Shown here: positions 510 through 24,756 of the stretch, piece after piece
Layout of the letters: each line of letters opens with the position of its first letter
How positions within the stretch are numbered: the stretch's first letter is position 1
Source: Boseongicola sp. SB0662_bin_57
Lineage (GTDB): Bacteria > Pseudomonadota > Alphaproteobacteria > Rhodobacterales > Rhodobacteraceae
Assembly: GCA_009839535.1 (NCBI GenBank)
Contig: VXPN01000263.1
Span: 1-40,529, forward strand
Direction: 5' to 3'
Length of the DNA: 40,529 bases
The notes under the pieces: model-generated
What the model saw: the letters and a program-made list of their open reading frames with translations, nothing else
Told to the model about the DNA's origin: nothing
The model's database searches: none
Program-made: the position numbers and the translations under genes

Positions 510-1781
510 CTGCCATATCCTTAGCGTGCCTTCGATCAAGCGCAATGGCGGAGCAAAATCCTTCCACGGGCAACCAAGGCGCAGGTCACTTTCGGGTTTG
601 ACGAGAGCTTCGCAACCGGCAAGGCAAACCCGTCAACCTTGTTGACCCAAAGGGAGAGTACCGCAATGTGTGGGACAGTTGTCGAGTCTGGTCCGTGATG
701 GCACGATCGGGTCATGTCCGCGTCACAGGACATCATGCAGTTGAAGGTTCACCTCTAGGGTATCACCCCGATGATCAGGAGGAGCATACAGGTGCCGCCA
801 TCTACGACCTTGCACGAGTTGCATGGCATTCTTCAGGTGGCGATTGGCTGGGAGAGGGTTCGAAACCCGGGTTGGCTGCAGCAATTTTTGGTGAACAAGA
901 CAGAGCGGAGACAAGACCAGTCAATCAAGTGACCCCGCAGATTTTGGTTGCGCTCTTTCCGAGCATGTCGCCATCACATGCCAATGCCTTGCACAGGATG
1001 GAGGGCGCTTCCGCACGGCACTGGCCCTCGCGAACAGCTTGAGGTGGAAGCTTCTATTCCGGCAACTTGGCAAATCCCCGCTTATCCACAGACACTTTCA
1101 ATTTCGGCCATGGCGTTCAAGGCAACGCCGCCGAAGACCACTCGCTTCAGAGTAGCTCCCAAGAATGTTGACAGCGATGCTGTCCGCCACTCGGACGGCG
1201 GAGCCCCGCACCTATGCTGCATCAGGTGAGCGCAAAGTGCGGTCTTTTCCAGCTGCCGGAGAACAAAGAGTTTCCCGATCATCTGCAGGCTCGCGCCGAG
1301 GACAGGGGCCTCAAGAGCCAAAGCTGATGCCGGGCACGGATGCAACGCCGTCGCCGGGACCGCGATTCCACAGCAACGAAGCAAGCGACTGCCGCGCTTC
1401 GCCAAAGGTTGCAGGAAGGCGAGACTTCAGCGATTCGTCTCGCCTTTGCTCTGACCGTCCCAGGTGTTCGGTTCCCGCGGCGCCGGCCTGGCAGAAGTCG
1501 CCAGCCTAGTGGGACAGCGGCTCCACACCCGCCTCGACGCCAGGCACATGCCTCGCGCCCAATCCGATCGCATGCGATTTAGCAGCGCGGCTGCCAGGAA
1601 TTGCTGCACTGCTTGCGGTCTGCATTGCACACGAACCGCTAGTTTGCCATATTGATGTGCACACCGATGTTGTCTTCGAAGGTAACATGCAAACGCTTCA
1701 CACTCGTCTGATCGCAAACCAGACCTGATCCCAACTTACCAAACGACGAACCATGACCCTTTGCTTCCGGAACTCCTAGAC

Positions 1782-2396
1782 ATGACTGCATCACTCGGTT
1801 ACGACCCAAGTCACCCCCTTCCGGATCCAGTGGCCATGCCTGATGCGGCTACCGCTCGGAAATTTGCACTTGGAACGCGTTCACGCCATCTTCGGAATGT
1901 TGAAAGTGATTTCTTTCAAGTTCCCCAAAGCTCCAACCAACCCAAGCCACCCCGACAGGTTTCTCACGCGGCAGTTCGTATCCTGGATCCCATAGACGCA
2001 TTTGCCCGCCAACTTGAAGAGCGGCTCGCAAGCCTAATGGAGACTGTCAATGCATATGATGACCGCATCTCCGCCTTGGAAGAGCAGGCCGCGGTTGAAG
2101 GGTACTTTCTAAACTCTCGATCAAGAGAGACCTTTCTGGAATTCTTCATAAGCAGCCCTTTGACAAAACTCGGCCACCTTTTTCTTCTGGAAAGCGGCAA
2201 CCTGCGTGCCGTTTGGAAAGGTGACGACAAGTCGCACGTCGGGCTCCAGTTCTTGGACAACGGCCTCATACAATATGTCTTGTTTAGGCAGCGACTTGCT
2301 GACGGTCCGGTATCAAGAGCGTACGGGCGAGATACGCCACGCGGCGTCCTCGCACAAATCTCCGCGCTCCAATTGGACCAAGCAGTGTTTCGGTGA
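1782..2396 (+). CDS. Hypothetical protein (about 204 aa), first gene of an overlapping pair
   Basis: ORF track 1761-2396, where the TTG at 1761 gives the longest form and the first ATG is at 1782 (MTASLGYD...). Ordinary amino-acid composition with a predicted coiled stretch (LEERLASLMETVNAYDDRISALEEQ). Its TGA overlaps the GTG of the next ORF. I recognise no family. Confidence 0.45.
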   Translation: MTASLGYDPSHPLPDPVAMPDAATARKFALGTRSRHLRNVESDFFQVPQSSNQPKPPRQVSHAAVRILDPIDAFARQLEERLASLMETVNAYDDRISALEEQAAVEGYFLNSRSRETFLEFFISSPLTKLGHLFLLESGNLRAVWKGDDKSHVGLQFLDNGLIQYVLFRQRLADGPVSRAYGRDTPRGVLAQISALQLDQAVFR

Positions 2397-2854
2397 GCGC
2401 CGGGGAAGTACCCGAAGCGCATCATGTAGTGCGATACGTCAAACCATCGTTGATTGACGAAGAGGCAGTGGATGGCAGTGCATTCGTGCTGCGCGAGTCT
2501 GAATCCGGTCTTTCTGTGAACTGGCTGGAATTCTTCGAAGACAACGACTGCCCTGATCCGGTTGCTGCAATCCGCGATCTCGCCAGAATATCCTTGGCAT
2601 CAACCGGCCACTTCGCGAAGCTCAGCGTTGGCCAGACAAAGGAACATGTACCCGTCGCCGCTGCTGACGTTGGCATTCCTCTTGAGCTGGCCGTTGTTCA
2701 GGCTCCCTTGCCCCGAGAGGCTGACTTTGAGGCTGACCCGTCTCATGCGGAAATTCTCGGTCTTCCTGATCGCGACGAAGATGCCGCAATGGTGGTAGGT
2801 GACTTGATTGCTGAGTGCATCTTGCTCCCGCTCATTCCGGCGAAGGCGACCTAG
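2393..2854 (+). CDS. Hypothetical protein (153 aa), translationally coupled to the upstream ORF
   Basis: GTG at 2393 overlaps the upstream stop (GTGA at 2393-2396). The sequence HHVVRYVKPSLIDEEAVDGSAFVLRESESGLSVNWLEFFED... looks protein-like, but no catalytic motif is recognised. It converges on the giant minus-strand gene. Confidence 0.45.
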   Translation: MSAGEVPEAHHVVRYVKPSLIDEEAVDGSAFVLRESESGLSVNWLEFFEDNDCPDPVAAIRDLARISLASTGHFAKLSVGQTKEHVPVAAADVGIPLELAVVQAPLPREADFEADPSHAEILGLPDRDEDAAMVVGDLIAECILLPLIPAKAT

Positions 2855-2925
2855 GCCGATCCAAGACCTCATATGCCGACCCAATCCGCATCCAGCGCAT
2901 TTCTTGCGCCATTCAAAAGCGGGTA

Positions 2926-5900
2926 TCACGCCAAACCTACCAGTGTCGCTGATCTTGCCCGCGCATGAAACCAACGCTTCACAGGCAAGATGGTTCCGAT
3001 TTCCTCCAGATGATCCAAGAAAGCATATAACGACTGATTAGGATGCGAAGGCAGCATGTCAACGACTTCCACCAGCTTTTTGTCAAGCCAGGAATACCAC
3101 TCATGTTCCTCCTCTAAGGCCGCTGCCGCCTGCAACAGGATTCGAGGAATGACCTCCACCTCCTTCTCAGTCACCAGCGACGAGATTCTCACCACTCCGT
3201 CACCAATACTTGAACAAAGTGAAGCACTTCGATTTGCTGCTGCCACGACACTCGCGCGTTCTAGGGTCTGAAGCGCTCGAGAGGTTTCCTTGACGTCCAT
3301 TTCTGGCGCTGCGTCACACGCACTCTCGACCGCCAGTCTTGCCAGTTCGAGTTGTCGTTCATTCAAGCAATGCAACTGGGAGAGAGTGACTAATGGCAGC
3401 ACTATATCGCCGTCCTTTGCTTGGGCAAGTTCCTCAATTTGCTCATTCACGTGGTCAGGCGGCGCACGGTCAGGTCGCCTGTCACCTTCCAGCGGACCAG
3501 GAAACCACAATGCCAGTTTAAGGCCGGACTTCTCAAGTTCCTCCAACTTCCCGTCGATCGATCCTGACGCTGGCACTTCTCGCCCGTTCTGCTCATGGCG
3601 TCTTCTCAAGGCCTCAAGCCGGCCAAGCACTTCATGGCGCAATCTATCCGAAGTCATTTGCGCCGCAAAAAGCATCGGCTCCACTCTTGCGTCAACGAGG
3701 CCCGCGTATGCCCCTGCTGCCGACATGTACTGACCAGCCCATTTTTCCAAGCTTCCCAGGTCAACGGTGTATCGCGACCTCAACATTGTTTCGACAACAT
3801 AGCCGGCCTGCATCCACGCCCCGAGCTGTTTCCAGTACCCCGGCTTCGTGGCGCCATCCTTCAGCAGGCCAATGCGGTTGAGGACAAAGTTCCCAACTAT
3901 CTGCAGCAGCCCGTATACGTCCCTTTCCTCATCGAACCCAAAATTTTCGTCCAGAAGTTGTTCCACGGCCTTGGATGCAAAATCCCGAAAGCGGTGATCG
4001 TGTTGCCTGTATAGAGCCACGTCCAGCGCACCAAGCCGGCTGAACGGATTCAATTCGGAATTCGCGGCTCTCAGTGCCGACCAAACATCGTCATCACTCT
4101 CATCGGCCAACCACTGGCCCGGCGAAAGTTCGTCGTGCACCGCTCCGAGGCAGCAAATGTGCAGCCCGCCTTCCAGTTCTCGGCCAAGGAGCGAGCACCT
4201 GTGCTGTGCAAGGGTATCGCTCACAAATGAATTCGCTGTCTGGTCGACCGGCGGCGGCGCCACGAACCGCTCAAAATACTCCATGGATTCTGGAACAAAG
4301 TCGCTGGGGCCCACTTGCTTGCCACCTAGTATCTTGTCCGCGATGCTGGCCTGCGTTGCGGCAACACCGTTGAAGCTCTCTTCAAGGAGACGCGACACCG
4401 TACTGAATTCCGGGACTGCAGAGCCAATTTCCTCCCGGAGTTGATCTTTTGATTCGAACGTCGGACCTAGCCTGTCGGCAATTCTGTCAAATGCCGTCAA
4501 ACGAACTTCCGAACTTGGAGACAGAAGGCACAGATCGGCCATGTCAACTTCTTGTGTTGCTCTCTCGGCATCCAACCAGCTCAAACGGATCATCTGGCTC
4601 TTTCCATCATATGTCACTGCCATTTCAGTGTCTGCCAAGTCCAAGGCCGTTGCTTCGCCGCCTTCGACCAGCGCTGCGGTCGCCGCGCTGAACAGGTCTC
4701 GATCCACAATCTGGATGGTCGGCCCAATCGAAATAACACTCTCCGCGCTATAGCCACTTCTCTTGGCGAACTCTGGGTCGTCTCTGAACATCAATGCCCG
4801 GGCCTTCTCCGGGAGAAGCTCCAGGATCAAATTGCCGTATGCAGCTTGATTAGTGTCGTGATCCGCGATTGCCTCAATGGCCTTTCTCGAATTCAACAAG
4901 GCAGCGTGGATCCTGTCTGAATTCGCGGGCCACAGATGCTGCAAAACGGTTTGCTCTATCCAATTTGCATAGTCATCTTTGCGTGCCGTAGCTATGCTTG
5001 AGAGTGGAAGCAGAACACTTCCAACGCGTAGCGAAACGACTTCACCAACCAATCGTCCGTACTCATCGAAATCCAATGCCTGGTGACCCGGGACTATGGT
5101 TTCCATCAGATTCCGCCAAATCCAGCTCGTATGGGCCACTACCGCCTCCGACGCCAGATCTGTGTCATGCCACATCTCGGAAATGGCCGCAGTGCACGCT
5201 GCCCTTGAGTTGGACACCAACGCAAACGCCTGATGCCAATTCGTCAATGCTAGCGAGTCACCTAGTGCTGTGGATTGCCGGAGCACTCGCAATTCGACAC
5301 TTTCAACCGTTTGTCCCTCCCTCACTCCGGTAGCACGAAGCCAATGGCATATCTCCTCTGCCTCCAAGGGGACAAATGCAAACCCGGCAGCTCGCAACCT
5401 GTGCCGAACACGGATGTAGTCTTCCTGCGGCATAAGATCGAACTTCATCAAGTGCTTGATGACATCCAGAACAGTCAAAATTGGCTTTGCCTGGTCATTC
5501 GATCCAATGAAGTGCGAGTGACTGTTCAAGAACCGGTCATCGATGCACAGCGCATCACACTGTGAGCCACCCCCCAAAAGCGACGCCGATGCCTTGAAGC
5601 GAAATGATCTCTCTGCATCCTTGAGAATCTGTGCAGCCGGCTGCGGCAAAAACGACGCCGTTCCCTCTTCGAGACGAGACGTGATCGTGCGCCTGATGGA
5701 CTCAATGCCGGACACAACTCTGTCCTCGGACTCCTCTTCATCGGCCAAAGCCCGCATGTCCGCAAAAGCACTGTCACGAATAAGAACTTTACCGAGAGCC
5801 GCAACGATCGGCTGAAGAACGTGTGCGGCGTTAAGGTAGTCCAACACGACATCGTCGAAACAAAACTGCCTTGTTGCCAAGTCGCTCGGTATGCCGGAAT

Positions 5901-8900
5901 CCTCCGTATCACCGCAATTTCTCAAGACGGAACAAATGCGCCCGTAAGCGTCTGCCTCGATTCTTCCATCTTCCTTCAGCCAGCTGCAAAGGGACGTCAG
6001 TGAGATGGTAACGTCCTCATATTCGCCCAGGTTGGCTTCCCTCTGCATCAGTGATCCAACCGCATAGATCGGGCGCGTGCACACGGCCATGGCTTTTTCG
6101 TTTCTTGCCCACTGCAAGACTTCAGCGGTCGCTCTTCCAGTCTCTTCAACTAGCCATCTCGGCGGCGCGCCCTCCAGATTCAAAGTTCTGATCTGTCTCT
6201 GGTCGTGTAGCCGCAAAACCTGTTTTGCCCCGGCAATTCGGGATGGTTGGTGGAAATGCGCCTCAGCCTTCTCCCGAAACAGGTGTTCAAAGATGTCGGG
6301 GGAGAACTTGACGTGACGAAAGACGTCCAACGACGCATCCAAAATGCCAAGATGATGCAAGACCAAGACCGAGGTCACGTCAACTCCCACTGTCCAGTCG
6401 TCCTCGATCTCGGTATCCGGTCGGCCAGCCGCTATGATTGGCAGTGCCACTCGATGCCGACCGTCGGCTTCTTTTGCGTTTTTGCTGGAAAGGTCCAGAA
6501 GCAACCGACTCAGCGAAACGCCGAACTTGTCCGCCATCATGCCGATGGGTATCTCCCCTTGCGTCCACTTTCGGTCTACCTCAACGAGGTGCTTGCGACG
6601 CTTGGGCAGCCAATCTTCAACGACGTAGCGGAGCGACATGCTCCGGACCGGCCCTTCGTCATCCGTAGACAGCTCCGCTGCTCGCAAAAGCCACTGCGGA
6701 TCCGCCTCCTCCTCGTGGCCAAGTCGAAAAAACTGCCAGCATACCGCGGCCAGAACCGCGGCGTCATCAGGCGCCCTATCCGCCGCAAGCCTCAACAGTT
6801 GCAATGCCCTTTCTCTTGATTGGCTCTCCTGTCCTACAAGACTTGCCAACGAAACCAGTTCGAATGCGTCAAGTTGTTCCCGAAGCCCCCATGCTGCGGT
6901 CACCATCCCCCCAAGGACCGCCCAATTTCCGGAGGCGATTGCGACCTTCACACCAATGAGCAGATTTTCCGTCGTTAGTCTCTTTTGCTTCGACCGTTCA
7001 TTCGCTTTCTCCGCTTCCACGTATTTCCCGGCGTGAAACAGCGCAATGCTCTTTGCGTTGAGTAGCGCTTCACTGTGATTCAAGAGATCCCCGCATTCAT
7101 CCAGAAAGGACAAAATACGTTCGTGATCTAGAAATGAAGGTCCTGAATAGGATGCAACGACATCAATAGCAATTTCTTCAGTCGGAAATCTTTGAAACAA
7201 TTCAAGGCAAAGCGGTCGTAGTGCCTCACGATCATTTCTTCTCTTGAGAAACTCTATCAGGTTCCGTAAGTCAATTATGCTATCAGTCTTTCCGTATTGC
7301 TCTTCCAGTTCATTTCGAATGTCTTGGCCCTCGTAGGCATCTATCATCATTTCAAGTCGCTTGAAGTGATGTTTGTCCAGTGAATCTCGATGTCGTTCCA
7401 GTGCGCGACGCGCATCGTGTAATGAATCTTCATCTGTGAGAATTGATTCAATGTAAGTTGATACAAATAGTGCAGGCGGAATTATGCTCTGTAGATGCTC
7501 TTCATTTTCTTCGAAGTATTTTTTGAACCGCTCCCGCCTCAATTTGTTCCTGTTGACAAAGAATTCTGCTACTCGTGCGCGCTCATCGAGTCCTCCGAGT
7601 TCGCGTCTCTTGTCCAGGTAAGCTTCCAGCGGCTTTCTGTCATAGTCTATCCCAAACGAGTGCACAAAAGGAACAAGTGCCACAGACGTTTCTGCATCTG
7701 CCATTTCTGCACCAACGCGTTCGCGTTCGGCATTTCGCTTGCCCGCATCGGGTTCCATTAGGCGCAGCCAGAGAGTCCAATCCGCCAAGTGGTTGAGCCA
7801 CTCTTTCCCTATCCGTCCTCGTAGAATCTGCTCGGCACGTCGGAAGCACTCCAGTGACCTGGCATGGTGGCCCGCTGCGGCGGCGCTCGAAATTGGCGCT
7901 ATGCCGAAAAACAAGGGAGGGCCATCAAGAACACGGTTCCTAAACTCGTCCGGAAGAAGAAGTGCCGCGTTTATTCTGCCCTCAGCAATTGCAAGCGCCG
8001 GAATTTCGTCCCACATTGGCTGACTGCCTGGCAAAGTGGCCGCTGCATCTTCCCATCTTCCGCAGCTTGCTGATGCATAGGCCCAATCGACCCATCCAGG
8101 ACCGGAAAAGAAATTCTCCTGGTCGACAACTCCTGATTGATCAAACCACTTCAGCGCTCGAAGCGCGCCTTTGGCCCGCATCAGGATTCCAAACCAGACT
8201 GACCTGGAATCCTGATCTCCTGCATCGCGAAGGTCACGTAGCGCCCCGTCTGCATCGCCTTCGGCCTCGCGAATGAGAGCGTCAATGATTGCCAAGTTTG
8301 GGCTCGGTTCACTCTTGGCGAGGCTCTCTCTTAGGTCTTTCGCGAATGCCAATGTCTCCATCCGCTCAGCACATAATCTTGCTGTCCACTGGAAGACATC
8401 CTGTTTCGAAGACTCATTGATTGTAGAAAGGTCGCCACCGTTCACGCGTTCAAACAATTGTAGAATTTTCTGTCTTGCTGTTTGAGACTCCAATGAACGA
8501 AGAGCCAGAATGTCTCGAAGTTCGTCTTCGGCGAATGGTGATAAAATCTGTTGAACTATTGGGAACTTCTCTGTGACTAGGTCAGCCAAAGAATTGACGT
8601 GCTTTTCTTCAAAATCGTCGAGACGAGAATTAAAGTCTCCATGCATTCTTTGGAACATTCCTGCCAATGGACGCTCTCTAGAAGACATTGAAGAAATATA
8701 TCCGGCAGCCAAGATGCCGGTCACAACGTCAATGGGACCCTTGGCACGGTTCGCTTGTTCTCCAGTATGTTCTGAGTACGCTAATGCAAGTCGCTTTCTT
8801 GCTTCAGCGTTGCTGGAAGTCGATCCCATTATTTGATCAGTCGCAAGAGTTTTGAAATCCTCTTCAACGGCATTGTTTCTGATCCATTCCTTAACCGCGT

Positions 8901-9150
8901 GAACCTTAAGAAAGTCTGGTGCGATGTACTTATGTTCAATGGTGTTCAAGAGCCCTTGCCACCATGCATCCGTTATTTGTCCGTCTCTCAATCTGCCATA
9001 CGTATCCCGTAAGACATGTTGTAGAAGATCAGAATTGTAGCCTTTTCGACCCGCCGATCTTTCATTGTGAAGGCGTACAGCATGCGGTATCGTCGCGCTG
9101 AACGCCGATCGCAATGCAGCGGTGAATAGGGAAGATACTGCATCTGACAT
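2926..9150 (-). CDS. Giant uncharacterised protein (2074 aa): mostly alpha-helical/TPR-like with a central PIN-like acidic segment and no NTPase motif
   Basis: ORF track 2926-9204. I prefer the ATG at 9150 (MSDAVSSLF...), which lies 13 nt downstream of the res stop (TGA 9166-9164); the longer form would overlap res. There is no GxxxxGK[ST] anywhere. The mid-protein segment WTVGVDVTSVLVLHHLGILD...FSPDIFEHLF...ALCIDDRFLN resembles the conserved acidic positions of PIN-like nucleases (tentative). Confidence 0.75.
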   Translation of the reverse strand: MSDAVSSLFTAALRSAFSATIPHAVRLHNERSAGRKGYNSDLLQHVLRDTYGRLRDGQITDAWWQGLLNTIEHKYIAPDFLKVHAVKEWIRNNAVEEDFKTLATDQIMGSTSSNAEARKRLALAYSEHTGEQANRAKGPIDVVTGILAAGYISSMSSRERPLAGMFQRMHGDFNSRLDDFEEKHVNSLADLVTEKFPIVQQILSPFAEDELRDILALRSLESQTARQKILQLFERVNGGDLSTINESSKQDVFQWTARLCAERMETLAFAKDLRESLAKSEPSPNLAIIDALIREAEGDADGALRDLRDAGDQDSRSVWFGILMRAKGALRALKWFDQSGVVDQENFFSGPGWVDWAYASASCGRWEDAAATLPGSQPMWDEIPALAIAEGRINAALLLPDEFRNRVLDGPPLFFGIAPISSAAAAGHHARSLECFRRAEQILRGRIGKEWLNHLADWTLWLRLMEPDAGKRNAERERVGAEMADAETSVALVPFVHSFGIDYDRKPLEAYLDKRRELGGLDERARVAEFFVNRNKLRRERFKKYFEENEEHLQSIIPPALFVSTYIESILTDEDSLHDARRALERHRDSLDKHHFKRLEMMIDAYEGQDIRNELEEQYGKTDSIIDLRNLIEFLKRRNDREALRPLCLELFQRFPTEEIAIDVVASYSGPSFLDHERILSFLDECGDLLNHSEALLNAKSIALFHAGKYVEAEKANERSKQKRLTTENLLIGVKVAIASGNWAVLGGMVTAAWGLREQLDAFELVSLASLVGQESQSRERALQLLRLAADRAPDDAAVLAAVCWQFFRLGHEEEADPQWLLRAAELSTDDEGPVRSMSLRYVVEDWLPKRRKHLVEVDRKWTQGEIPIGMMADKFGVSLSRLLLDLSSKNAKEADGRHRVALPIIAAGRPDTEIEDDWTVGVDVTSVLVLHHLGILDASLDVFRHVKFSPDIFEHLFREKAEAHFHQPSRIAGAKQVLRLHDQRQIRTLNLEGAPPRWLVEETGRATAEVLQWARNEKAMAVCTRPIYAVGSLMQREANLGEYEDVTISLTSLCSWLKEDGRIEADAYGRICSVLRNCGDTEDSGIPSDLATRQFCFDDVVLDYLNAAHVLQPIVAALGKVLIRDSAFADMRALADEEESEDRVVSGIESIRRTITSRLEEGTASFLPQPAAQILKDAERSFRFKASASLLGGGSQCDALCIDDRFLNSHSHFIGSNDQAKPILTVLDVIKHLMKFDLMPQEDYIRVRHRLRAAGFAFVPLEAEEICHWLRATGVREGQTVESVELRVLRQSTALGDSLALTNWHQAFALVSNSRAACTAAISEMWHDTDLASEAVVAHTSWIWRNLMETIVPGHQALDFDEYGRLVGEVVSLRVGSVLLPLSSIATARKDDYANWIEQTVLQHLWPANSDRIHAALLNSRKAIEAIADHDTNQAAYGNLILELLPEKARALMFRDDPEFAKRSGYSAESVISIGPTIQIVDRDLFSAATAALVEGGEATALDLADTEMAVTYDGKSQMIRLSWLDAERATQEVDMADLCLLSPSSEVRLTAFDRIADRLGPTFESKDQLREEIGSAVPEFSTVSRLLEESFNGVAATQASIADKILGGKQVGPSDFVPESMEYFERFVAPPPVDQTANSFVSDTLAQHRCSLLGRELEGGLHICCLGAVHDELSPGQWLADESDDDVWSALRAANSELNPFSRLGALDVALYRQHDHRFRDFASKAVEQLLDENFGFDEERDVYGLLQIVGNFVLNRIGLLKDGATKPGYWKQLGAWMQAGYVVETMLRSRYTVDLGSLEKWAGQYMSAAGAYAGLVDARVEPMLFAAQMTSDRLRHEVLGRLEALRRRHEQNGREVPASGSIDGKLEELEKSGLKLALWFPGPLEGDRRPDRAPPDHVNEQIEELAQAKDGDIVLPLVTLSQLHCLNERQLELARLAVESACDAAPEMDVKETSRALQTLERASVVAAANRSASLCSSIGDGVVRISSLVTEKEVEVIPRILLQAAAALEEEHEWYSWLDKKLVEVVDMLPSHPNQSLYAFLDHLEEIGTILPVKRWFHARARSATLVGLA

Positions 9151-9163
9151 TTCTATCGACCCA

Positions 9164-11800
9164 TCATGGCGTTGTCGGAATTCGCAATGTACTGGAATTT
9201 GCAAAGTAGCGAGGGAGCTTGGCCTTCCACTCGCTCATCAGGATCAAGGCGCCCTCGACGGTTTCGCCGCTGTTAACCAATTCCAACTCGCCAACCGGCG
9301 TGGCATTGTCCCAACGGAAGTGATCCGAGAGGAAGGAAAGAACCTCCCGCTTGTAGGCCGTGTCGAGGTTGTCAAGCTGGTCGCCCTTGGTCTCGAGAGC
9401 CACGATCCGCCTGGCCGCTCCCTCACGCCGGACGGCAAAGATGAAGTCCGGGTAGATCTTCGCCGACTTCCACCCTTGGATGCCGTACTGCTTTCGCGCG
9501 ACGTTGCGGTGCCACCAGTCAAGCGTCTTCTCGCCGTCGATGTAGACCGCCACATCCCGCTCGTCACGGTTCATCTCGTTCTCGTAGACGGGCGAGAACA
9601 GGCTCCTTTCAAGCGGGCCGCCTGATTGGCTCGCGAGCTGGCGAGCGTTCTTTGGCTCAGTGGTCTCAACCCTTAAGGGCATTCGCCAGTTGCGGCCGTC
9701 GAGCCGCAAACGGAACTGAATGCGGCCCTCAAGCACCTCGTCCTTGAAATGGGCTTCGGCGCACGCGTTTCGCTTGACGTCTAGCCCCTTGCGCAGCTCT
9801 TCCACGATCAAGCTGGCGGTCCGGCCGAGCATGGCGTCGTCGAATCCTCGCGCCCGAAGTGCCGCCACCGTTGCGCCGACGATCTCGCGCCCCACGAAGG
9901 CGTTCTGAACGATGTCCGAGATCATCCGGACCGCGTGGGCCGGATCAAAGGCAAGGCTCTCCGGACTTTCAGTGACGGTCTTGCTGACGAACGGTTCGCC
10001 GCCCGTGTGCGCGATGCCGATCCTCTGGAGCTGGCTTTCCGCCGCTTGCGCGTTATCGGGCACGATCTCCGAGATTTCCTGCGGATCAAAGCCCCGCCAG
10101 TCGATCCTGGAGAGCAGATCCGTCTCGTAGTCTAGCTCGCGCGCGTCGCCACCTTCGACCACCATGACCTTCGGAAGATAGATTTCCGTTTTGGCGAAAG
10201 CCGGGCGGCGCTTGATCGGGCGGGGCGTGTCGCCGTTCCCGTCCTCGCCGTCCTGGGTCACGCTCAGGACCAGATCGCCGAGCCCGTCCCGTTCCAGGCC
10301 TTCCTTGATTCCGGCGACAACCGTCGCCGTGTTTGCGTGGTGCGTGATCACGTGGCACTCGTCGAGGGCCTCGACACCCGTCTTCAGGGCACCCGGCTGC
10401 CGGAGAATGCGGCCGACGAGCTGCGTCATGGCCTTCAGGTTGGAACTGGCAGCAAGGCTGCACAGCACGTAGGCGAACGGACAGTCCCAGCCCTCCTGAA
10501 GGGCCTGCTTGGTGACTATCGCCCGGACCCTGCTGGTCGAGGACAGAAGGTCCTGGTTCTCGGGGGCCTTCAGGTCGTTTTGCTGGGCCGTCTTGATCGC
10601 GATCTCCGCTTCATCGAAGCCGGCCGTCAGGAGCCATTCCTTCACGTCTTCGGCGTGGACATGGCCGCTTTCGCGCTGTTCGGCACCCGTGCGCTCGACC
10701 TGGATCAGCATGATCGGACGGATGTACCTGCCGGTTTCGGACAGCAGCGTCCGTGCTTCGGCATCCAGCGCCTGAAGCTTGGCCAGGGCGGCGTTCAGTG
10801 TCGCCTTCCAGTCGTTGCCCTGCCGGGGATCGAGGTTGAGCGGCATCTTGATCATGCCCTCCCGGTCCAGCTCGCGGCCTGTCACCTCGATCAGGACATT
10901 GGCGTAACGCCCGGCGTGATGTTTCCTCCTGCCGCCCGGCTTGACGTCCTGCGGCGTGGCGGTCAGCTCCAGGACGAAGCACGGATTGAAGCCGTAAAGC
11001 GTCCTGAACGCCAGGTCGGTGATGGCGCGGTGCCCTTCGTCCAGAACGACGACGGGACGGATGAGCCGCAAGGCGTTGCCAAGGGAGTCCTTCACCATCG
11101 GGAACATGTCGTCATAGGCGGCGAGGTTTGGAGTCGCCTCAAGCGCGGCCTTGTGCGCCAACTGCTCGCCCTCCGGCGGGAAGAAGCCATGCACGTCTCC
11201 CCGGTCCTGGAACATCTTCAGGGATTCCTGCGTCTCGCGGTTGGCTGACTGAAGCATGAGCAGCATCACGCAGAGATTGGATTCCACGTCTCGGGCGTCG
11301 AGACGGTCCGTCTTCTCCATGATCTTCACGCGTCCGGCGGCAGCGCGGTCGAGCGCCTGCCGGTAGGGATGCTGGCGGTTCTTCAGGTGCTTCAGGGTCT
11401 GCGTGTAGATCGCCTCGTTCGGCACGATCCACAGGACGAAGCCCGTGTTTTGTTCCAGATAGCGCCCCAGGATCCGGGACACGGACGAGATGGCAATCCA
11501 GGTCTTGCCGCCCGCCGTGGGCACCTTGAGAACGGCGTTCGGCACGGGGCGGTTGCGGCCGTCCCGTCTAGGCGAGAAAGGAATGTTCTTTCGGGACTTT
11601 GGCAGCCTGCGTTCCGAGCGAAGCACCTCCCATGCCTTCTCGGCTAAGTCGGGAATGGGAACGTCAAGATCGGGCTCGACGGCCGCAAGGGCCGCGATCC
11701 TGTCCGCCTTGCCCTTCTCCTCCTTGAGAACGTCGAGATAGCCTTCCAGCGCCGAGAACGCGCGATTCTGGTAGTCGAGTTTTCGAAAGCTGAAGCCCAA
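9164..11800 (-). CDS. res: Type III restriction-modification system, restriction subunit (Res; SF2 helicase plus C-terminal PD-(D/E)xK nuclease)
   Basis: Motif I is KVPTAGGKTWIA and motif II is VVVLDEGHRA (DEGH). Later helicase motifs are present (LIQVERTG, QEGWDCPFAYVL). The C-terminal nuclease signature is IYPDFIF...ALETKG. The track ORF starts at TTG 11914 and would overlap mod by about 110 nt. No ATG follows, so I take the in-frame TTG at 11800-11798, which sits 4 nt after the mod stop with GGAG upstream. The start is uncertain. Confidence 0.85.
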   Translation of the reverse strand: MGFSFRKLDYQNRAFSALEGYLDVLKEEKGKADRIAALAAVEPDLDVPIPDLAEKAWEVLRSERRLPKSRKNIPFSPRRDGRNRPVPNAVLKVPTAGGKTWIAISSVSRILGRYLEQNTGFVLWIVPNEAIYTQTLKHLKNRQHPYRQALDRAAAGRVKIMEKTDRLDARDVESNLCVMLLMLQSANRETQESLKMFQDRGDVHGFFPPEGEQLAHKAALEATPNLAAYDDMFPMVKDSLGNALRLIRPVVVLDEGHRAITDLAFRTLYGFNPCFVLELTATPQDVKPGGRRKHHAGRYANVLIEVTGRELDREGMIKMPLNLDPRQGNDWKATLNAALAKLQALDAEARTLLSETGRYIRPIMLIQVERTGAEQRESGHVHAEDVKEWLLTAGFDEAEIAIKTAQQNDLKAPENQDLLSSTSRVRAIVTKQALQEGWDCPFAYVLCSLAASSNLKAMTQLVGRILRQPGALKTGVEALDECHVITHHANTATVVAGIKEGLERDGLGDLVLSVTQDGEDGNGDTPRPIKRRPAFAKTEIYLPKVMVVEGGDARELDYETDLLSRIDWRGFDPQEISEIVPDNAQAAESQLQRIGIAHTGGEPFVSKTVTESPESLAFDPAHAVRMISDIVQNAFVGREIVGATVAALRARGFDDAMLGRTASLIVEELRKGLDVKRNACAEAHFKDEVLEGRIQFRLRLDGRNWRMPLRVETTEPKNARQLASQSGGPLERSLFSPVYENEMNRDERDVAVYIDGEKTLDWWHRNVARKQYGIQGWKSAKIYPDFIFAVRREGAARRIVALETKGDQLDNLDTAYKREVLSFLSDHFRWDNATPVGELELVNSGETVEGALILMSEWKAKLPRYFANSSTLRIPTTP

Positions 11801-11804
11801 GGGA

Positions 11805-13577
11805 TCAACTCCGGTCGATGCGATAGAGGGCGAAGGGCAGTGGCACAAATTCAACCGGGATGTTCTGCTCGGCCAGCATCTTCTGGCTGACGTACCTGGC
11901 TGGCGCGAACACAAGGTGCCGTGCCTCCGGATCCGTCTCTGCGAATTCCTTTGCCCGCTTGAGCGTCAACGCCGATTCCGGGGACTTGAGCCAGTCCAGG
12001 TCGGGCCTGTAGATCAACCAGACATGCTGACCCTCCGTCGCCCCGAGATGGAATTCGCTTTCGCGCATGACGTTCGGATCGAGAGCTCGGGCGGTCGCCA
12101 TGTGAAAGAGAACGGAGCCAATCGCGTCATAGGTCGGCAGCGTTTCGCCACGGAGCACCTTGTCCAGCTCTATCGGATCGCCAAGAGTGCAGTAGGTGAA
12201 GCTCCCGCCAAGGCCGTCGGTGCGTTCCTCGACGGCCTTCTCTCCCGTGACGATCAGCTCGCCGTCCGTCACGGTCTTCTTGATGGCGTCGTATTCGTGG
12301 CCGTGCAGGTTTTCGATCCCGTCAACGGATTCGTGGAGCTTTTGCCCCTGTTTGAGTTTGGTCCACGTCAGCTTTTCGCGGAGAAGCTCGGTGCGCTGCG
12401 TGCCCCGGTAAGCGTGGCCGTTGATCACACGGCGCACCCGCTCCGCAGTTAGCCTGTCCGCATAGTCTTCCATCTCGATCAGGATGAACCGGCGATTTCC
12501 GCCATCCCGCTTGTTTGCCTGCAAGACTGCCTGAGCAGTGGTGCCTGATCCAGCGAAACTGTCGAGGACCAGAGCGTCTTCCTTGGGATGTTGCGAGACC
12601 AGGAATTCAATCAGGTCCGGCGGTTTGGGAAATTCGAAGTCACGATTGCCCATTATCCGTTCAAAGGCGACAGTTCCATCGCGTGTGTGAATCGGCAACT
12701 CAATCACGCTGGATGTATTGGTATGGTCGCCAAGATCGTCGAGAAACACTTTCTCTCTGGGACGGCCCTTTGCATCTGGAGGCCAAAGCACGCGCCCTTC
12801 GTCGATCAGGCGTTTCATTCGTTCCTGACCATATCGCCATCCTCTCTTGGGGCAGCCGAAGTTGAGTCCGGTCTCCGGATCGATCAGGTCGTAATGCAAG
12901 TTTGGCCTTGCTTCCCTTGATGCCATGCCAACCATGTTGCCACTGGACCACGGTCCTCGCTCGTCTTCGTCGGGATTCTGGAAGCTGGCTCCAAGTCTTT
13001 GATCGCCGAGGATGCCCTTCCCCACGACAATGATGAATTCATGATCGTTGGAAAGCCCGCTCTTGTTCCGGTTGTCCTTGTTCTGACGCGACTTCCAGAC
13101 GAGCTGGCCTATGAAGTTTTCCGGGCCGAATATCTCCCAGACAAGATGAACGAGACGGGCGTTTTCGATGTCGTCGATCGAGATGAAGAGCAGTCCGTCA
13201 TCTGCCAGCAGCTCTCTCAGCAGCCGCAGCCTGGGCCACATCATGGCGCACCACTTGTCGTGACGTAGGCCGTCCTCGATTCCAACCGGATTGGATTCGA
13301 GCCATTCCCTGATCATTGGGGCGTTGACGTTGTCGTTGTAGCGCCAGCCTTCGTTGCCGGTGTTGTACGGCGGGTCTATGAAGATGCAGTCCACCTTTCC
13401 CGCGTAGAGCGGCATGAGCGCCTTGAGGGCGTGCAGGTTGTCTCCGTGAACGATCAGGTTGCCGTCGAGCGCCACAGGACCGATGCCCTTGCTCTCCTCT
13501 GGCACCAGCGGCCTGAACGGCACCGCAAGATGGTGGTTGTAGACAAACTCCTTGCCTTTGAAGTTAAGTTCCGTCAT
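11805..13577 (-). CDS. mod: Type III restriction-modification system, methyltransferase subunit (Mod; beta-class N6-adenine/N4-cytosine MTase)
   Basis: Motif IV FIDPPYNTGNEGW is N-terminal and the AdoMet motif I VLDSFAGSGTTAQAV is C-terminal, with a long variable (TRD-like) region between them. This is the Type III Mod order. The ATG at 13577 (MTELNFKGKEF) has GAGAGG upstream. The track's longer start is 13610. Confidence 0.9.
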   Translation of the reverse strand: MTELNFKGKEFVYNHHLAVPFRPLVPEESKGIGPVALDGNLIVHGDNLHALKALMPLYAGKVDCIFIDPPYNTGNEGWRYNDNVNAPMIREWLESNPVGIEDGLRHDKWCAMMWPRLRLLRELLADDGLLFISIDDIENARLVHLVWEIFGPENFIGQLVWKSRQNKDNRNKSGLSNDHEFIIVVGKGILGDQRLGASFQNPDEDERGPWSSGNMVGMASREARPNLHYDLIDPETGLNFGCPKRGWRYGQERMKRLIDEGRVLWPPDAKGRPREKVFLDDLGDHTNTSSVIELPIHTRDGTVAFERIMGNRDFEFPKPPDLIEFLVSQHPKEDALVLDSFAGSGTTAQAVLQANKRDGGNRRFILIEMEDYADRLTAERVRRVINGHAYRGTQRTELLREKLTWTKLKQGQKLHESVDGIENLHGHEYDAIKKTVTDGELIVTGEKAVEERTDGLGGSFTYCTLGDPIELDKVLRGETLPTYDAIGSVLFHMATARALDPNVMRESEFHLGATEGQHVWLIYRPDLDWLKSPESALTLKRAKEFAETDPEARHLVFAPARYVSQKMLAEQNIPVEFVPLPFALYRIDRS

Positions 13578-13760
13578 GCGTGCCTCTCTTGAAGAGCCGT
13601 CGCGCTGCATGAAAGCAGCCGCGGCTCGTCTGTATCATTCCAAAGCCAACTTGCGAGAGCCATCCTTTGTCAAGACCCGCAAATTGCCATGAGCCGCTCA
13701 CTCGTGCTGACCGTGGCCAACTCTTCGCCGGGCAAAACCCAACTCAATCCGGACATCGAC

Positions 13761-16700
13761 TTATCCGGAGCGCAGAGACCTGAGCCACTCCAGCGTCTTG
13801 AGGACGGGTGCGTTCTGCTGGTCCACCGGGATGTGGGGTGGTTCATCCAAGTCCAGGACTACGGTCGTCATGTCGTTGGTTGGTATTTCCCATGCGTTGA
13901 TGACGGCCAGATCACGCTTGCCTATTGGCAGGTCGAAAATGGGCTTTGGCGCCGCCTGCTCGTTTGGCATGTGTGCGGGCATCAGCACATACCGACCATG
14001 ACGCGCGTACTCCGCGAGGAACTGATCAAGGTTCTGTGTCGAATTCGGGTACATGCGATGGAAGCGTGACACAAATCCGAGGACATTCTCATCCGATAGG
14101 GGAACATTGTCCGGGTTTGGGCTGACCATCACGGCATACGCAGCAGGCCTGTCGCGCGATATGCCGCGAACGATCGTGATCTTGAGATCGTCCTTGAAGT
14201 CGTCATCGCCGTACCGTTTGCGCCAAGACCTGAAGATGTCTTTGGCGGCCGCAAGGTTCTTGTACACAAGTCCCAGCATGGGCGGCTGCATGTCGGGACC
14301 GGGCGGGGACCTCATGAAGAGGGTGGCGTACCATTTCGCCTTGTCCCACTTTTGCACATCAATGGGCGAGATCCAGCGCGTCTTCGAGTGCTTGCCTTTG
14401 GCCACATCCCGCAGTTCTTTGGGCGCAAGGCCTTCGCCACGCTTTGCGTTGCCAATCGACTTGATTGCATCTGGAACTGGTGCGGGGGGCCAAGCTTCCG
14501 TGCGTTTGACTTCATAGATGGGATCGGCAGGATCGATCCAATCGGCGAGCGAAAGCCGTGCGCGATCACCATGCAGTTCATCAAGCATCATGGGAACGTT
14601 AGAGAACGTCAGCGCGCGATCCAGGGCGCGTTCATCTTCGAACAGCGCCTTTCCCCACGTCTCGGCATCCAGAGGCGCAGCGAAGCGAAGGAAGATCTCG
14701 AGAACGGCATCCTTCATCCAACGCGGAAACGACAGCACGTCTTCCTTGGTCTTGTATTCCATGACCAAGCGATGCGTGATCGTACCGACCGGCTCGCCTT
14801 CAACATCGGAAAACGTCAGAACCGGGCTGAGGCCAACGTCATCGGACGGCATTACCCGCAGTTGCAAGTGGTCCACCTGAGGAAAGATGCGATGATCGAG
14901 ACTCGTCGCAAGCAAGGCTTCCAGTGACCCAAGGACGGCCTCGCCAATTCCGATGGAAACAAGATTGTTGGTGCAGGCCACCTCGATGCGGCACCCGAGC
15001 ACGTTGGATGAGAGCGTGACGGTTTCCCCAAGGGCGAAATCTGGAACCGGATAGTCCGCTTTCACGCCGGATTCGCGCAAGTCTCGCATGATGGTCTCTA
15101 CCCCTTCAGATGTTTCTTGGTCCGGCATCCAACCTTCCATTCTCAGGATGTCTTCATTGCCCATCAGGTAGAGCAGAGCGCAGCGTGACATCGGCAACGC
15201 GAGCCTTTCGAGGGCGTCGGGAAGTTGAGCGATGTCGCCCAATTCAGCGACGGGTGTTTGCAACAGCAGCGATGCGATCTGCGTCATGTGCGCCGCATGC
15301 ATCTGGTCGAGGCGGCGACGCTGCCCGTCAGTGCGCGCTTGTGCGTTGCGAACGATCAGCTCCAACTCGTGCGCACTCAAGATCTGTGGAACGCGACCGA
15401 GTTTCAATTCGGTATCGAAGTGCCTGGACAAGACAGAAGCCCGAAGCGCGCCAATGCTGCCATGCCTCTTGAAGTTCGAGAATTCCTGACTGACGGCGGC
15501 GAGGGTGTAGTTCCTGGCAGCCCACGGAAGGCCGACTTCTTCGAAGGCGAATCCTGCGCCTATCAAGGCGTCGACAAGGACGTCTTCGTACTCCTCCTTG
15601 ATGAGGAGCGTGAGGGCGCGGCCGAACCAGCGGATCGCTTCGCAGGGCAGTCCCTTTGCAAGCTTCTGGTACGCCCGTTGCACGTTCTTCCCTGCCGCCT
15701 CGCCTTCCCCGCTACGTGACGCGAGGGCATCGGTGATAGTTTCGAACAGCGTGTCGAATTCGTCGCTGTCAGCGATGAACTCGCCGATTTGTGTGAGGGC
15801 ATCTGCGATGCTGGTGAACGGGAATGTCCCTAGCCCTTCGGCTCGTTTGATGACGTCGGTGAACGAGACCCAGATGTCCTTGAGCGGGTCGTCGCGATGC
15901 TCAACTCCTTTTTCGGAGACGCGGGTCATCAGCAACATGGCTTCGGCATGTAGCGCGTTGTTTGGGCGGTTGGTCTGCACCGCCAGGGCTTCCAGCGCGG
16001 ACTTGAGTGCGGCGGTGCGGTCCTTGAGCTTTCCTTTCGATGCTTCCATCGAACCCGTATGAACACTCACTCGTATGAGGGGCAGCAAATTGCTCAGACG
16101 CTCCAGATCATTCGCATCGTCGGAACCGAGAGCTAGACGTTCGACATCGTCATAGAGTTCAGACGTGCGAAGGTGGTCCTCATGCCAGAAATGAGAGGTC
16201 CACGCCCACTCGTAGGCAATCGCGAGTTCGAGCCTTTTGAGGTATTTGTCTCGCGCGAGACGAAGTGCGCGATCGAAACGCCCGTTCACGTCGGCGCTCG
16301 AATGCTCCAATCCTCGAGCCAGAAGCGCGGCACGCCGTGCATCCTCGACCAGCGCGACAGATTGCCCCTGATACTGCGAGGCGTCAGCGATCCTTGCCTC
16401 AAGGGCCTCCAGTTCCGCCGAGCGTTTCGTATCACTTGGCCCCTGCTTCCTGGCTTGCTTCTCCGTACCCTTGCCAACGCCAAGCTCCTCGACGGCAATG
16501 GCCATGCTGTCGTGCTTGAAGACGCGGTCGAGCAGCCACGTGCGATCCAGAATTGTGACTGGAATGCCGTGCTCCTTTGTCAGCCCGTCCTGCAGGTCGG
16601 CCGATTTCTTCGCAGGGACGAACTGGTTCGTTACGCAGATGATCTGATCGTAATCTCGCTTGGTGCCAGCGATTGCGGCGACGTCAGACCTGATTTTCGG

Positions 16701-17084
16701 TCGCCAGTCCTTCTTGGCGCTGAACGCGAAGGCCTTGCGCTCGCCGGCCTTGTCGTTGTCGGGCACGTACCAGCGTGCAGAGACTTCACTCGACACGGGG
16801 AATGTCTCTGCGTCGGTCTTGCCGTCACCCCCTCCAATCGGACCCGTCTGAGGACGAATGTTCGGCGCGATGAACTTTTCGCAAAGGCGCTGCGCGAAAT
16901 TCTCGAATGCGGTTTCGTCCTTCTGGTTGGTGAGCGTATCGAGGTGGTGGGACAAAACTTCGCGGCCGACCTCGTATTCCACTTCCGACACTGAATCGGA
17001 GAACAGGTCGGGGTGGCGGTCGCGCATGTAGCGGGACGGCGCATACTTCGTTTCAACGGGTGCGGTCTTTGCTTGTTCGGTCAT
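13761..17084 (-). CDS. Uncharacterised 1107-aa protein: N-terminal Mrr-like PD-(D/E)xK nuclease fold, helical-repeat middle, unknown C-terminal domain, no NTPase
   Basis: The N-terminus FENFAQRLCEKFIAPNIRPQTGPIGGGDGKTDAE...RKAFAFSAKKDW...IICVTNQFV fits the Mrr-type pattern (FE..h...L, G.GDGG.D, h.QxK-like SAKK). It is followed by about 500 aa of TPR-like helices and a mixed C-terminal region. The gene ends 183 nt upstream of mod on the same strand. Confidence 0.75.
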   Translation of the reverse strand: MTEQAKTAPVETKYAPSRYMRDRHPDLFSDSVSEVEYEVGREVLSHHLDTLTNQKDETAFENFAQRLCEKFIAPNIRPQTGPIGGGDGKTDAETFPVSSEVSARWYVPDNDKAGERKAFAFSAKKDWRPKIRSDVAAIAGTKRDYDQIICVTNQFVPAKKSADLQDGLTKEHGIPVTILDRTWLLDRVFKHDSMAIAVEELGVGKGTEKQARKQGPSDTKRSAELEALEARIADASQYQGQSVALVEDARRAALLARGLEHSSADVNGRFDRALRLARDKYLKRLELAIAYEWAWTSHFWHEDHLRTSELYDDVERLALGSDDANDLERLSNLLPLIRVSVHTGSMEASKGKLKDRTAALKSALEALAVQTNRPNNALHAEAMLLMTRVSEKGVEHRDDPLKDIWVSFTDVIKRAEGLGTFPFTSIADALTQIGEFIADSDEFDTLFETITDALASRSGEGEAAGKNVQRAYQKLAKGLPCEAIRWFGRALTLLIKEEYEDVLVDALIGAGFAFEEVGLPWAARNYTLAAVSQEFSNFKRHGSIGALRASVLSRHFDTELKLGRVPQILSAHELELIVRNAQARTDGQRRRLDQMHAAHMTQIASLLLQTPVAELGDIAQLPDALERLALPMSRCALLYLMGNEDILRMEGWMPDQETSEGVETIMRDLRESGVKADYPVPDFALGETVTLSSNVLGCRIEVACTNNLVSIGIGEAVLGSLEALLATSLDHRIFPQVDHLQLRVMPSDDVGLSPVLTFSDVEGEPVGTITHRLVMEYKTKEDVLSFPRWMKDAVLEIFLRFAAPLDAETWGKALFEDERALDRALTFSNVPMMLDELHGDRARLSLADWIDPADPIYEVKRTEAWPPAPVPDAIKSIGNAKRGEGLAPKELRDVAKGKHSKTRWISPIDVQKWDKAKWYATLFMRSPPGPDMQPPMLGLVYKNLAAAKDIFRSWRKRYGDDDFKDDLKITIVRGISRDRPAAYAVMVSPNPDNVPLSDENVLGFVSRFHRMYPNSTQNLDQFLAEYARHGRYVLMPAHMPNEQAAPKPIFDLPIGKRDLAVINAWEIPTNDMTTVVLDLDEPPHIPVDQQNAPVLKTLEWLRSLRSG

Positions 17085-18424: not shown

Positions 18425-18440
18425 CCGCCGTCCTCCCGCC

Positions 18441-22949: not shown

Positions 22950-23201
22950 CCGTTCAGGCTCCCCGCAAGGCGGCGGCCAGGACGGAGCCGGAAAGGGCCG
23001 GGCCGCACGGAACGGCATGCAGGGGCGGGGCGCCATGCGCGGACGGTCCGGGATGCGGACCCGCCAACGGACACGGGGATCGGCAGCGCGACGGCAACGG
23101 GCAGGCCTGCCCGGCCCTCGCGGAAGCGCGGAAGCGGAGTCCGGGCGGTCCTCCGTCGCCATGTTGCCGTGCACGGCGACGGCCGGCGACGGCGCGGCGG
23201 T

Positions 23202-24451: not shown

Positions 24452-24756
24452 GCCGCCCGCTCCCCGGCCATCGCCGAAATCGCCGACAGGAGGCTCTGGC
24501 CGCTCCCGCCGGGAAGCTCCTCCCGGAGCAGGCGGACGACGCCGAGGACCTCCAGCATGCCCTCCAGGAGCGACAGCTGCGCCTCCTCGTCGATCACGAC
24601 CGGATGCACGTCCGGATCGTCCTGGAGCGCCAGGTCGAGCACGTAGCGCGAGATCGTCTTGCCCGCCGCCTTCGCCCGCCCCCGGATCATCGCCTGCTCC
24701 TCCGGCGGGCAGTGCAGGCTGCGCTGCCGCCGCCGTTCGCGCGCCGCGCCGCTCAC
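24448..24756 (-). CDS. Ribbon-helix-helix protein, paralog B (about 102 aa)
   Basis: SLHCPPEEQAMIRGRAKAAGKTISRYVLDLAL has the same RHH layout. The GTG at 24756 overlaps the stop of paralog C (GTGA). Confidence 0.5.
   Translation of the reverse strand: MSGAARERRRQRSLHCPPEEQAMIRGRAKAAGKTISRYVLDLALQDDPDVHPVVIDEEAQLSLLEGMLEVLGVVRLLREELPGGSGQSLLSAISAMAGERAA

Follow-up and report, generated by a model that had tools for sequence, protein, structure and literature searches.

A giant protein with a predicted double PIN nuclease encoded directly behind a Type III restriction-modification pair in Boseongicola sp. SB0662_bin_57

The closest described relatives of the locus considered here are the TPR-GreA/B-C-PIN systems (TPR, tetratricopeptide repeat), which Kaur, Burroughs, Iyer and Aravind (2021, eLife; PMC8195603) predicted to be conflict systems that attack the transcripts of invaders and which mostly stand alone in the genome (PMC8195603). 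They are themselves a computational prediction only, and the Pfam PIN domain that was defined for them is PF20698. Further afield, the validated systems DS-3 and DS-5 identified with DefensePredictor show that phage defence can require a PIN ribonuclease (RNase) that has no classical antitoxin (PMC13092281); these are Escherichia coli systems of a different architecture, and we liken them to our locus by their use of a PIN domain and not by homology. The subject of this study is a protein of 2,074 amino acids (aa), called the giant below, which is encoded in a 40,529-nucleotide (nt) stretch of contig VXPN01000263.1 from Boseongicola sp. SB0662_bin_57; this whole stretch is the window. From its sequence and modelled structure, the giant appears to be a protein free of nucleoside triphosphatase (NTPase) domains with a predicted double PIN nuclease, and we would class it as a variant of the predicted TPR-GreA/B-C-PIN kind, not as a demonstrated member. 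Together with two small convergent genes, d211 and d153, it probably represents, in the reading towards which we lean, a horizontally transferred conflict module related to TPR-GreA/B-C-PIN, in which the second PIN unit (PIN-B) would be gated by sensing. The genes and the conserved element of the immediate locus are as follows.

2926–9150, minus strand: giant gene, 2,074 aa, stop codon at 2926–2928, a full-length member of the PF24407 family.
9164–11800, minus strand: res, TTG start at 11800, PADLOC REase_III at 2.5e-177.
11805–13610, minus strand: mod, PADLOC MTase_III at 1.7e-220.
2393–2854, plus strand: d153, 153 aa, convergent with the giant, their stops 71 nt apart.
1782–2396, plus strand: d211, ~204 aa from the ATG at 1782, its stop overlapping the d153 start by 4 nt.
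1623–1657, plus strand: conserved non-coding motif CATTGCA-N14-TTGCCATATTGATG, ~125–160 nt upstream of d211, from a five-locus alignment.

The original prediction described mod, res and the giant as lying on one strand with gaps of 4 nt and 13 nt, and this holds: the TTG of res at 11800 lies 4 nt past the mod stop, and res ends at 9164, 13 nt before the ATG of the giant. The frame of the giant is open for 2,074 codons from the ATG at 9150, with no stop back to a TTG at 9204, and the ATG is favoured as the start because homologues keep the N terminus from MSDAVSS onwards. At 6.2 kb, and with some 90 or more full-length homologue clusters, the open reading frame (ORF) is far beyond chance. The stated lack of NTPase, helicase and methylase motifs was likewise borne out, since a motif scan returned no GxxxxGK[ST], DExD/H or [DNS]PP[YFW] and Pfam no helicase or methylase domain; an AxxxxGKS sequence (AVTYDGKS) occurs once, at aa 1511–1518, and is absent from the family consensus. 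The sole direct profile match of the giant is PF24407, ‘HTH upstream of double PIN’ (HTH, helix-turn-helix), which scores 41.3 bits in the window against a cut-off of 27 and is matched by all 22 aligned members. PADLOC, NCBIfam and PHROGs gave no match to the giant, and its single sequence gave no meaningful match among PDB sequences. Its domains run in the following order.

8563–9150, minus strand: N-terminal domain, aa 1–196, a swappable module.
6616–8562, minus strand: TPR-like helical region, aa 197–845.
6421–6615, minus strand: HTH (PF24407), aa 846–910, the Pfam match.
5887–6420, minus strand: PIN-A, the first PIN-like alpha/beta unit, aa ~911–1088.
5371–5886, minus strand: PIN-B, the second PIN-like unit, aa ~1089–1260.
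4780–5370, minus strand: helical connector, aa 1261–1457, which ends ‘subunit A’ of split forms.
2929–4779, minus strand: C-terminal module, aa 1458–2074, a small beta domain followed by a HEAT/ARM-like alpha-solenoid.
4540–4737, minus strand: the small beta domain within the C-terminal module, aa ~1472–1537.

An AlphaFold2 model of aa 905–2074 (1,170 aa, built from 74 sequences; predicted local distance difference test score (pLDDT) 89.4, predicted template modelling score (pTM) 0.80) contains two beta-alpha-beta units, a helical stretch, the small beta domain and a long all-helical C terminus, with aa ~1305–1465 and 1545–2074 helical throughout. Two PIN-like beta-alpha units therefore follow the HTH in the model, matching the name of the PF24407 family. 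A central PIN-type acidic nuclease core had been proposed from the sequence, and the kind of domain was recognised correctly, but the single core resolves into two tandem PIN-like units: GVDVTS, with D924, lies in the first and CIDDRF, with D1204–D1205, in the second, so that the two motifs that had been read together belong to different units. In PIN-A, D924 is conserved in 100% of members, E960 and E1003 in ~96–97% and D1040 in 86%. The acidic set of PIN-B is complete in the window (D1099, E1140/E1150, D1204/D1205 and D1229) and strongly conserved across the family, with D1099 at 95%, D/E1140 or E/D1150 at 88–97% and both D1204 and D1229 at 100%. In the model these residues sit directly after strands or at helix starts, the arrangement of VapC-type PINs, and PIN-B, in model and alignment alike, carries the four conserved acidic residues by which a PIN domain is recognised, after beta1, in the following helix, after beta3 and after beta4.

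A link to the PIN domain of the TPR-GreA/B-C-PIN systems emerged from the homologues. PF20698 matches 14 of the 22 aligned members at E ≤ 0.01 (best 9.7e-7, at 29.6 bits against a cut-off of 27.8), and the match spans nearly the whole Pfam model and falls on aa ~1097–1210, that is, on the second unit (aa 1098–1211 in protein P0057; likewise P0063 and P0022), while in P0341 it maps to the first. Like the TPR-GreA/B-C-PIN proteins, the giant is large and NTPase-less and carries TPR repeats N-terminal to a PIN that may be of the PF20698 type, the homologue matches being marginal; its family too sets a variable N-terminal module (TIR, caspase) on a constant core, and its distribution is similarly patchy and its genes often stand alone. 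The most direct connection is P0073, a 2,471-aa protein from Acidobacteriota (loci L025/L039, 6170–13585), which has a strong PF20698 PIN (aa 988–1126, 5e-20) and TPRs in its N-terminal half and a giant-like C-terminal half that tblastn aligns to aa 879–2066 of the window protein; two related systems seem to have been fused in it. The differences are equally clear. No GreA_GreB domain was detected at E ≤ 0.1 in any member scanned, nor any GreA/Gfh1 chain in the profile-versus-PDB search; the PF24407 HTH occupies the position of GreA/B-C, and the small beta domain lies after the PINs. The giant also adds a second PIN, a 630-aa beta-plus-solenoid module and conserved two-gene partner cassettes. 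The statement that no described system has this composition thus needs qualification: the kind has been described in part, through PF24407 and the putative PF20698-type PIN (PMC8195603). Neither the giant nor d153 or d211 was matched by any model of PADLOC-DB v2 at E ≤ 0.01. The PF24407 entry itself (HTH_upst_double_PIN) covers only the 70-aa HTH, which the giant matches and which its two PIN-like units follow; no paper found in our literature search names PF24407 or PF20698 or describes function, partners or architecture for the former. The present analysis gives a first anatomy of the PF24407 family, with its domain order, predicted catalytic residues, fission boundary, swappable N termini and two alternative cassettes.

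The helical, TPR-like character noted at the outset was confirmed: TPR families (TPR_19, TPR_15, TPR_2 and related) match several homologues at aa ~610–775, and the C-terminal part of the model is all-helical. The TPR signal in the window giant itself is weak, and the family profile gave weak matches to TPR proteins in the PDB (coatomer epsilon at 7e-4; BBS4). A Foldseek comparison of the model with the PDB aligned the C terminus to HEAT/ARM solenoids (importin-beta) alone, with none at E ≤ 1e-3. About 800 residues had been said to resemble nothing that could be named; these prove largely to be a separable subunit, the small beta domain plus solenoid, which is a separate gene in split relatives. 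At L141 (4444–10630) the first gene encodes 1,435 aa, and the second, which overlaps it, encodes 633 aa that correspond to aa 1458–2067 of the giant (34% identity, 6e-102). L140 (3462–9680) is split likewise, its second part being further divided into 236 + 396 aa, with AbiEi/AbiEii just upstream, and across L141, L140 and L139 (5674–11641) the two parts measure ~1,366–1,446 aa and, overlapping, ~625–633 aa; on a plasmid of Methylophaga thalassica IOM01, at 158690–164657 of NZ_CP143310, they are 1,366 + 624 aa. The boundary of fusion or fission thus lies at about aa 1440–1458.

The opposite end of the protein is exchanged rather than split. In P0076 a SEFIR/TIR domain (aa 5–143) takes the place of aa 1–196 of the window giant, and plasmid p1 of Leptolyngbya boryana IU 594 (L138, 3358–9999) encodes a 2,213-aa ‘caspase family protein’ whose TPR-HTH-double-PIN core aligns from residue 347. 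The latter gene is flanked by genes for multiubiquitin, a ThiF-family E1-like protein, DUF6527 and DUF3037, and by its gene content this is a candidate ubiquitin-like conjugation conflict neighbourhood. When a profile of the N-terminal domain of the window type was run against 1.84 billion representatives, it retrieved 330 proteins, namely giants, ~1,430-aa forms, fragments and a few proteins of 240–330 aa without a Pfam domain, so this domain is confined to the giant family and those few short proteins; it has no match among PDB sequences.

A search of 5.8 billion proteins yielded ~90 giant clusters, all with PF24407, mostly of 2,000–2,140 aa (typically ~2,060) and alignable over their full length at 30–71% identity. 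With one genome taken per species (185,579 species), 60 giant loci were found, in Proteobacteria, Acidobacteriota, Binatia, Spirochaetia, Nitrospirota, Desulfobacterota and a few archaeal contigs of metagenome-assembled genomes (MAGs). So rare and patchy a distribution is as expected for a mobile gene. The nearest relatives come from Paracoccaceae/Rhodobacteraceae MAGs (L001 at 70%; P0003, ‘Aestuariivita sp.’), and distant ones are plasmid-borne in cultured Methylophaga, Agrobacterium and several cyanobacteria, of which Methylophaga thalassica IOM01, Agrobacterium fabrum and Leptolyngbya boryana offer cultured carriers. Many carrier names (the titles of L020, L022, L026 and L028; P0092, P0095 and P0190) resemble those of sponge-microbiome bins, for example RHO3_bin, APA_bin, SB0662_bin and the OXC/OXI locus tags, and going by these names the family may be over-represented among sponge symbionts.

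Around the giants, genes of conflict systems recur. A Type I restriction-modification (R-M) system with HepT/MNT lies near the giant at L067, Mrr-type nucleases at L068 and L071, and toxin-antitoxin genes with integrases at L065 and L069. SNF2 helicases of ~1,150 aa lie within 10 kb of the giants at L004, L006, L007, L013, L017 and others, matching PADLOC HmaA/DrmD at E = 0, and DrmA and mad2 matches recur over the same distance; the PADLOC scan of neighbouring ORFs is a set of per-family counts. Taken together, the exchange of TIR and caspase N termini and the R-M, Abi, toxin-antitoxin, DISARM-like and CRISPR neighbours favour a role in conflict; context and domain swaps point to a defence function and make the giant a candidate immune system. 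The same surveys bear on a different explanation, in which the family serves not immunity but either selfish addiction or stabilisation of its carrier element, or regulation or RNA processing on a scaffold within symbiont physiology. Many carriers are, by their names, MAGs from sponge or marine symbionts, genomes in which TPR proteins abound; some loci lie amid metabolic genes, relatives are found on plasmids, a relaxase, integrases and toxin-antitoxin genes occur nearby, IMG/VR viral contigs contain no giant relative, and the defence role is an inferred one. Against this, the TIR/SEFIR exchange and the caspase-annotated relative with the same core are typical of immune effectors, giants recur beside R-M, Abi, CRISPR and DISARM-like genes, and rarity and patchiness speak against housekeeping. 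We regard a non-immune role as improbable.

The only conserved neighbours of the giant are d211 and d153. They are present in 15 of the 60 genome loci, with place and orientation unchanged, and on further contigs. The cassette accompanies the giant in about 40% of loci, the window included. In 18 of 20 loci it stands tail-to-tail with the giant, at a distance of 46–179 nt from the stop of the latter, and at L064 the giant is followed by a 187-aa and then a 158-aa gene, all in the same direction. Over 20 non-redundant loci, distances between giants correlate with those between d153 (r = 0.91) and between d211 proteins (r = 0.92), values that none of 2,000 Mantel permutations reached, and giant and pair share a base composition (G+C at third codon positions, GC3, of 0.55 for the giant, 0.57 for d153 and 0.53 for d211). 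Giants with the pair are spread over several clades, the deep branch L036 among them, which fits an old association with repeated loss. The 71-nt convergent spacer in the window folds no better than shuffled sequences (z = -0.89).

Neither small protein matches a Pfam, PADLOC, NCBIfam, PHROG or PDB sequence. Conservation in d211 is confined to the C-terminal ~110 aa, the N-terminal ~100 aa being variable; d153 has ten invariant residues (H11, R14, Y15, S41, V42, W44, E46, D115, S117 and H118) and a confident alpha/beta model (pLDDT 92.5) for which Foldseek found no PDB neighbour at E ≤ 1e-3. The best superposition was with the NADase Tne2 (6b12_A), which ranked 41st by E-value, with template modelling (TM) scores of 0.39/0.47 and a probability of 0.11; the resemblance is at most a lead, and an identity as ADP-ribosyltransferase/NADase was considered and found unsupported. 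In BFVD, where likewise no match was significant, the sole high-probability neighbour is A0A9E7QQI2, a 149-aa viral protein (probability 0.97, TM 0.43, E 0.025), and one distant d153-like ORF is present on an IMG/VR contig (L137). Upstream of d211, the motif CATTGCA-N14-TTGCCATATTGATG is invariant in the window, L001, L065, L066 and L072 despite proteins that are only 35–60% identical. A strict sigma-70 scan did not call it; it reads as promoter-like and may be a promoter, an operator or an element of the 5′ untranslated region.

In its layout the pair resembles a type II toxin-antitoxin system, being small, co-directional, joined by a conserved 4-nt overlap and able to occur as an autonomous cassette. 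Metagenomic d153 loci of at least 53% identity adjoin a giant; homologues at 26–47% belong to self-contained two-gene cassettes, again with a 4-nt overlap, amid housekeeping genes, the stand-alone pairs at L079, L097 and L133 lying between BamA/PdxA, sulfatase and similar genes. Homology to known toxins or antitoxins was looked for in sequence and fold libraries and not found, and so it is by architecture that d211 and d153 look like a toxin-antitoxin cassette. Another clade (L070, L021, L011, L027 and L019) lacks them and has, upstream and co-directional, a 157-aa gene and a PF01850 (VapC-like) PIN gene that end 0–400 nt before the giant and in L070 (7074–8008) overlap its start. The comparison with VapBC and other type II systems therefore extends to several features: the acidic residues of VapC-type RNases are retained in the PIN units of the giant, d211-d153 is likewise laid out as two small genes, and one clade has a true PF01850 PIN gene. 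The PINs of the giant differ in sitting within a 2,074-aa scaffold, for which no adjacent antitoxin-like inhibitor domain was identified.

Two further explanations turn on how giant and pair are related. In one, the giant is self-sufficient, a single protein of the type described by Kaur and colleagues, and d211-d153 is an unrelated toxin-antitoxin cassette that hitch-hikes beside it. The pair is indeed absent from about 60% of loci, 17 of which have no conserved partner at all; distant d153 homologues occur by themselves between housekeeping genes, and the related systems are mostly stand-alone (PMC8195603). Yet the adjacency persists down to 31–38% giant identity and across phyla, with the gap held within the range given above, it survives the change of orientation in L064, and the distances correlate at r = 0.91; moreover, the two-gene PIN-toxin-like cassette at the 5′ end of the giant in the other clade suggests a recurring functional need. 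Hitch-hiking is thus, in our judgement, unlikely. In the other explanation, giant, d211 and d153 together would form an undescribed NTPase-independent immune system in which a TPR/solenoid scaffold of ~2,000 aa, with its PIN nuclease in duplicate, is coupled in function to a toxin-antitoxin-like pair. There d153 would have a new fold and a possible catalytic site composed of H-R-Y, S-x-N-W and D-x-S-H, the split forms would be four-part systems, and on sensing infection the scaffold would set free or switch on either the small effector or its own PIN. This is a tentative alternative, which we hold to be possible but doubtful.

The relation to Type III R-M was the point on which the original prediction had offered its two options, an accessory sensor/effector that extends the R-M system, or an independent single-gene defence factor on the R-M promoter. 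If the first were true, the giant would be a third, accessory subunit of mod-res. It is co-directional with res, and because of the 13-nt gap and a promoter/terminator scan of 9000–9700 that found no such site (the scans were empty at both module ends), read-through from res is plausible; from this arrangement, the giant is probably transcribed by read-through from mod-res in this genome. Comparison with its relatives, however, gives a different picture. Enrichment of homologues next to Type III res had been proposed as a check, and res lies beside the giant in none of the 60 loci of species-representative genomes. As a tblastn query against these loci, the window res found no res and the window mod a single weak mod-like match, 7 kb away in L014, counts that are to be read as lower bounds; no Type III genes appeared in further annotated contexts of giant homologues, and clustering of flanking ORFs across loci placed no R-M family among the conserved neighbours. 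The DNA upstream of the giant in the closest relatives, L001, L066 and L072, is unrelated to that of the window, homology failing to continue beyond the start codon, and in a tblastx synteny comparison, which is noisy at this G+C content, only the block ~1600–9150 is common to the window and its relatives. The base composition breaks at the same place, GC3 being 0.82 in res and 0.72 in mod against the much lower value of the giant given above, which co-evolves with other genes than these. PADLOC models span the whole of mod and of res, which form an intact Type III pair without the giant.

The comparative data largely refute the accessory model, which we now consider very improbable. Relative to EcoP15I-like mod-res systems, the giant is physically adjacent and probably co-transcribed in this window only; its composition and evolutionary history differ from theirs, and no homologue locus keeps the adjacency. 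Judged from these comparisons, the giant is not a subunit of Type III R-M but the large component of an independent module that landed behind res. Of the second option, independence stands, and the single-gene part gives way to the two small conserved convergent partners. A tempting but wrong three-gene Type III model is thereby removed, and the locus illustrates that packing in an island can make tight, probably co-transcribed junctions out of unrelated systems.

We propose the following working model for the conflict module related to TPR-GreA/B-C-PIN. The module would act as an anti-invader or abortive-infection system, in which the TPR and solenoid surfaces, together with the HTH, might recognise an invader-derived protein or nucleic acid. 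Recognition would then license PIN-B, through D1099, E1140/E1150, D1204 and D1229, to cut RNA. The d211-d153 pair could be an antitoxin-toxin cassette that contributes either a second effector or regulation, and the exchangeable N terminus, family-specific here and TIR or caspase elsewhere, may supply further output or control. In this genome the giant would have lost its own upstream region and is probably read through from mod-res. Should the trio prove to be a defence system, the known repertoire would gain a PIN-based sensor-effector that is free of NTPases and has a partner of new fold.

Several observations weigh against this proposal. Position 1040 of PIN-A is N in the window giant, whereas 61 of 74 sequences have D there; the window giant itself does not reach E ≤ 0.01 for PF20698, and the scores of its homologues lie at or just around the gathering score. 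The PIN fold is unconfirmed by structural comparison, because Foldseek on the 1,170-aa model returned solenoids only. Several giant loci sit amid housekeeping or metabolic genes, and behind the 13-nt junction there could be a functional coupling to res that is peculiar to this genome. The role of d211-d153 may be dispensable or incidental, given the majority of loci that lack them, and their toxin-antitoxin reading is an argument from gene architecture, because the two proteins match no family or fold.

The window as a whole is a defence and mobile island comprising CRISPR-Cas, a relaxase, a mobile 1,107-aa protein, the Type III R-M pair and the trio of giant, d211 and d153. Its other features are listed here.

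30627–38917, minus strand: type I-U/I-G-like cas operon with a Cas4-Cas1 fusion, Cas3, GSU0054 and GSU0053.
~28100–30060, adjoining the cas operon: CRISPR array with ~37-nt repeats (GCTTCAATGAAGCCGGGGCGAAAACGCCCCGGATGCC) and a period of ~73 nt.
18441–23174, minus strand: TrwC/TraI relaxase ORF, with relaxase domains in the PDB at 3.5e-47.
13761–17084, minus strand: 1,107-aa ORF, 150 nt upstream of mod.

The block 18000–25000 has a G+C content of 74–78%, against 55–66% across the remaining window, which suggests a conjugative-element segment from a donor of much higher G+C; a 2,004-aa plus-strand ORF in this block was rejected as an antisense artefact. The 1,107-aa ORF has no match in Pfam, PADLOC, NCBIfam or PHROG and at least 418 homologue clusters, with 80–89% identity across Burkholderia, Sphingomonas, Agrobacterium, Ralstonia and Pseudovibrio. 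It too was considered as a true R-M accessory and rejected, its homologues being found in conjugative or mobilisable elements with no R-M genes alongside. They adjoin relaxase, TraG, integrase and ParDE genes, and the protein looks like a highly mobile cargo of conjugative elements.

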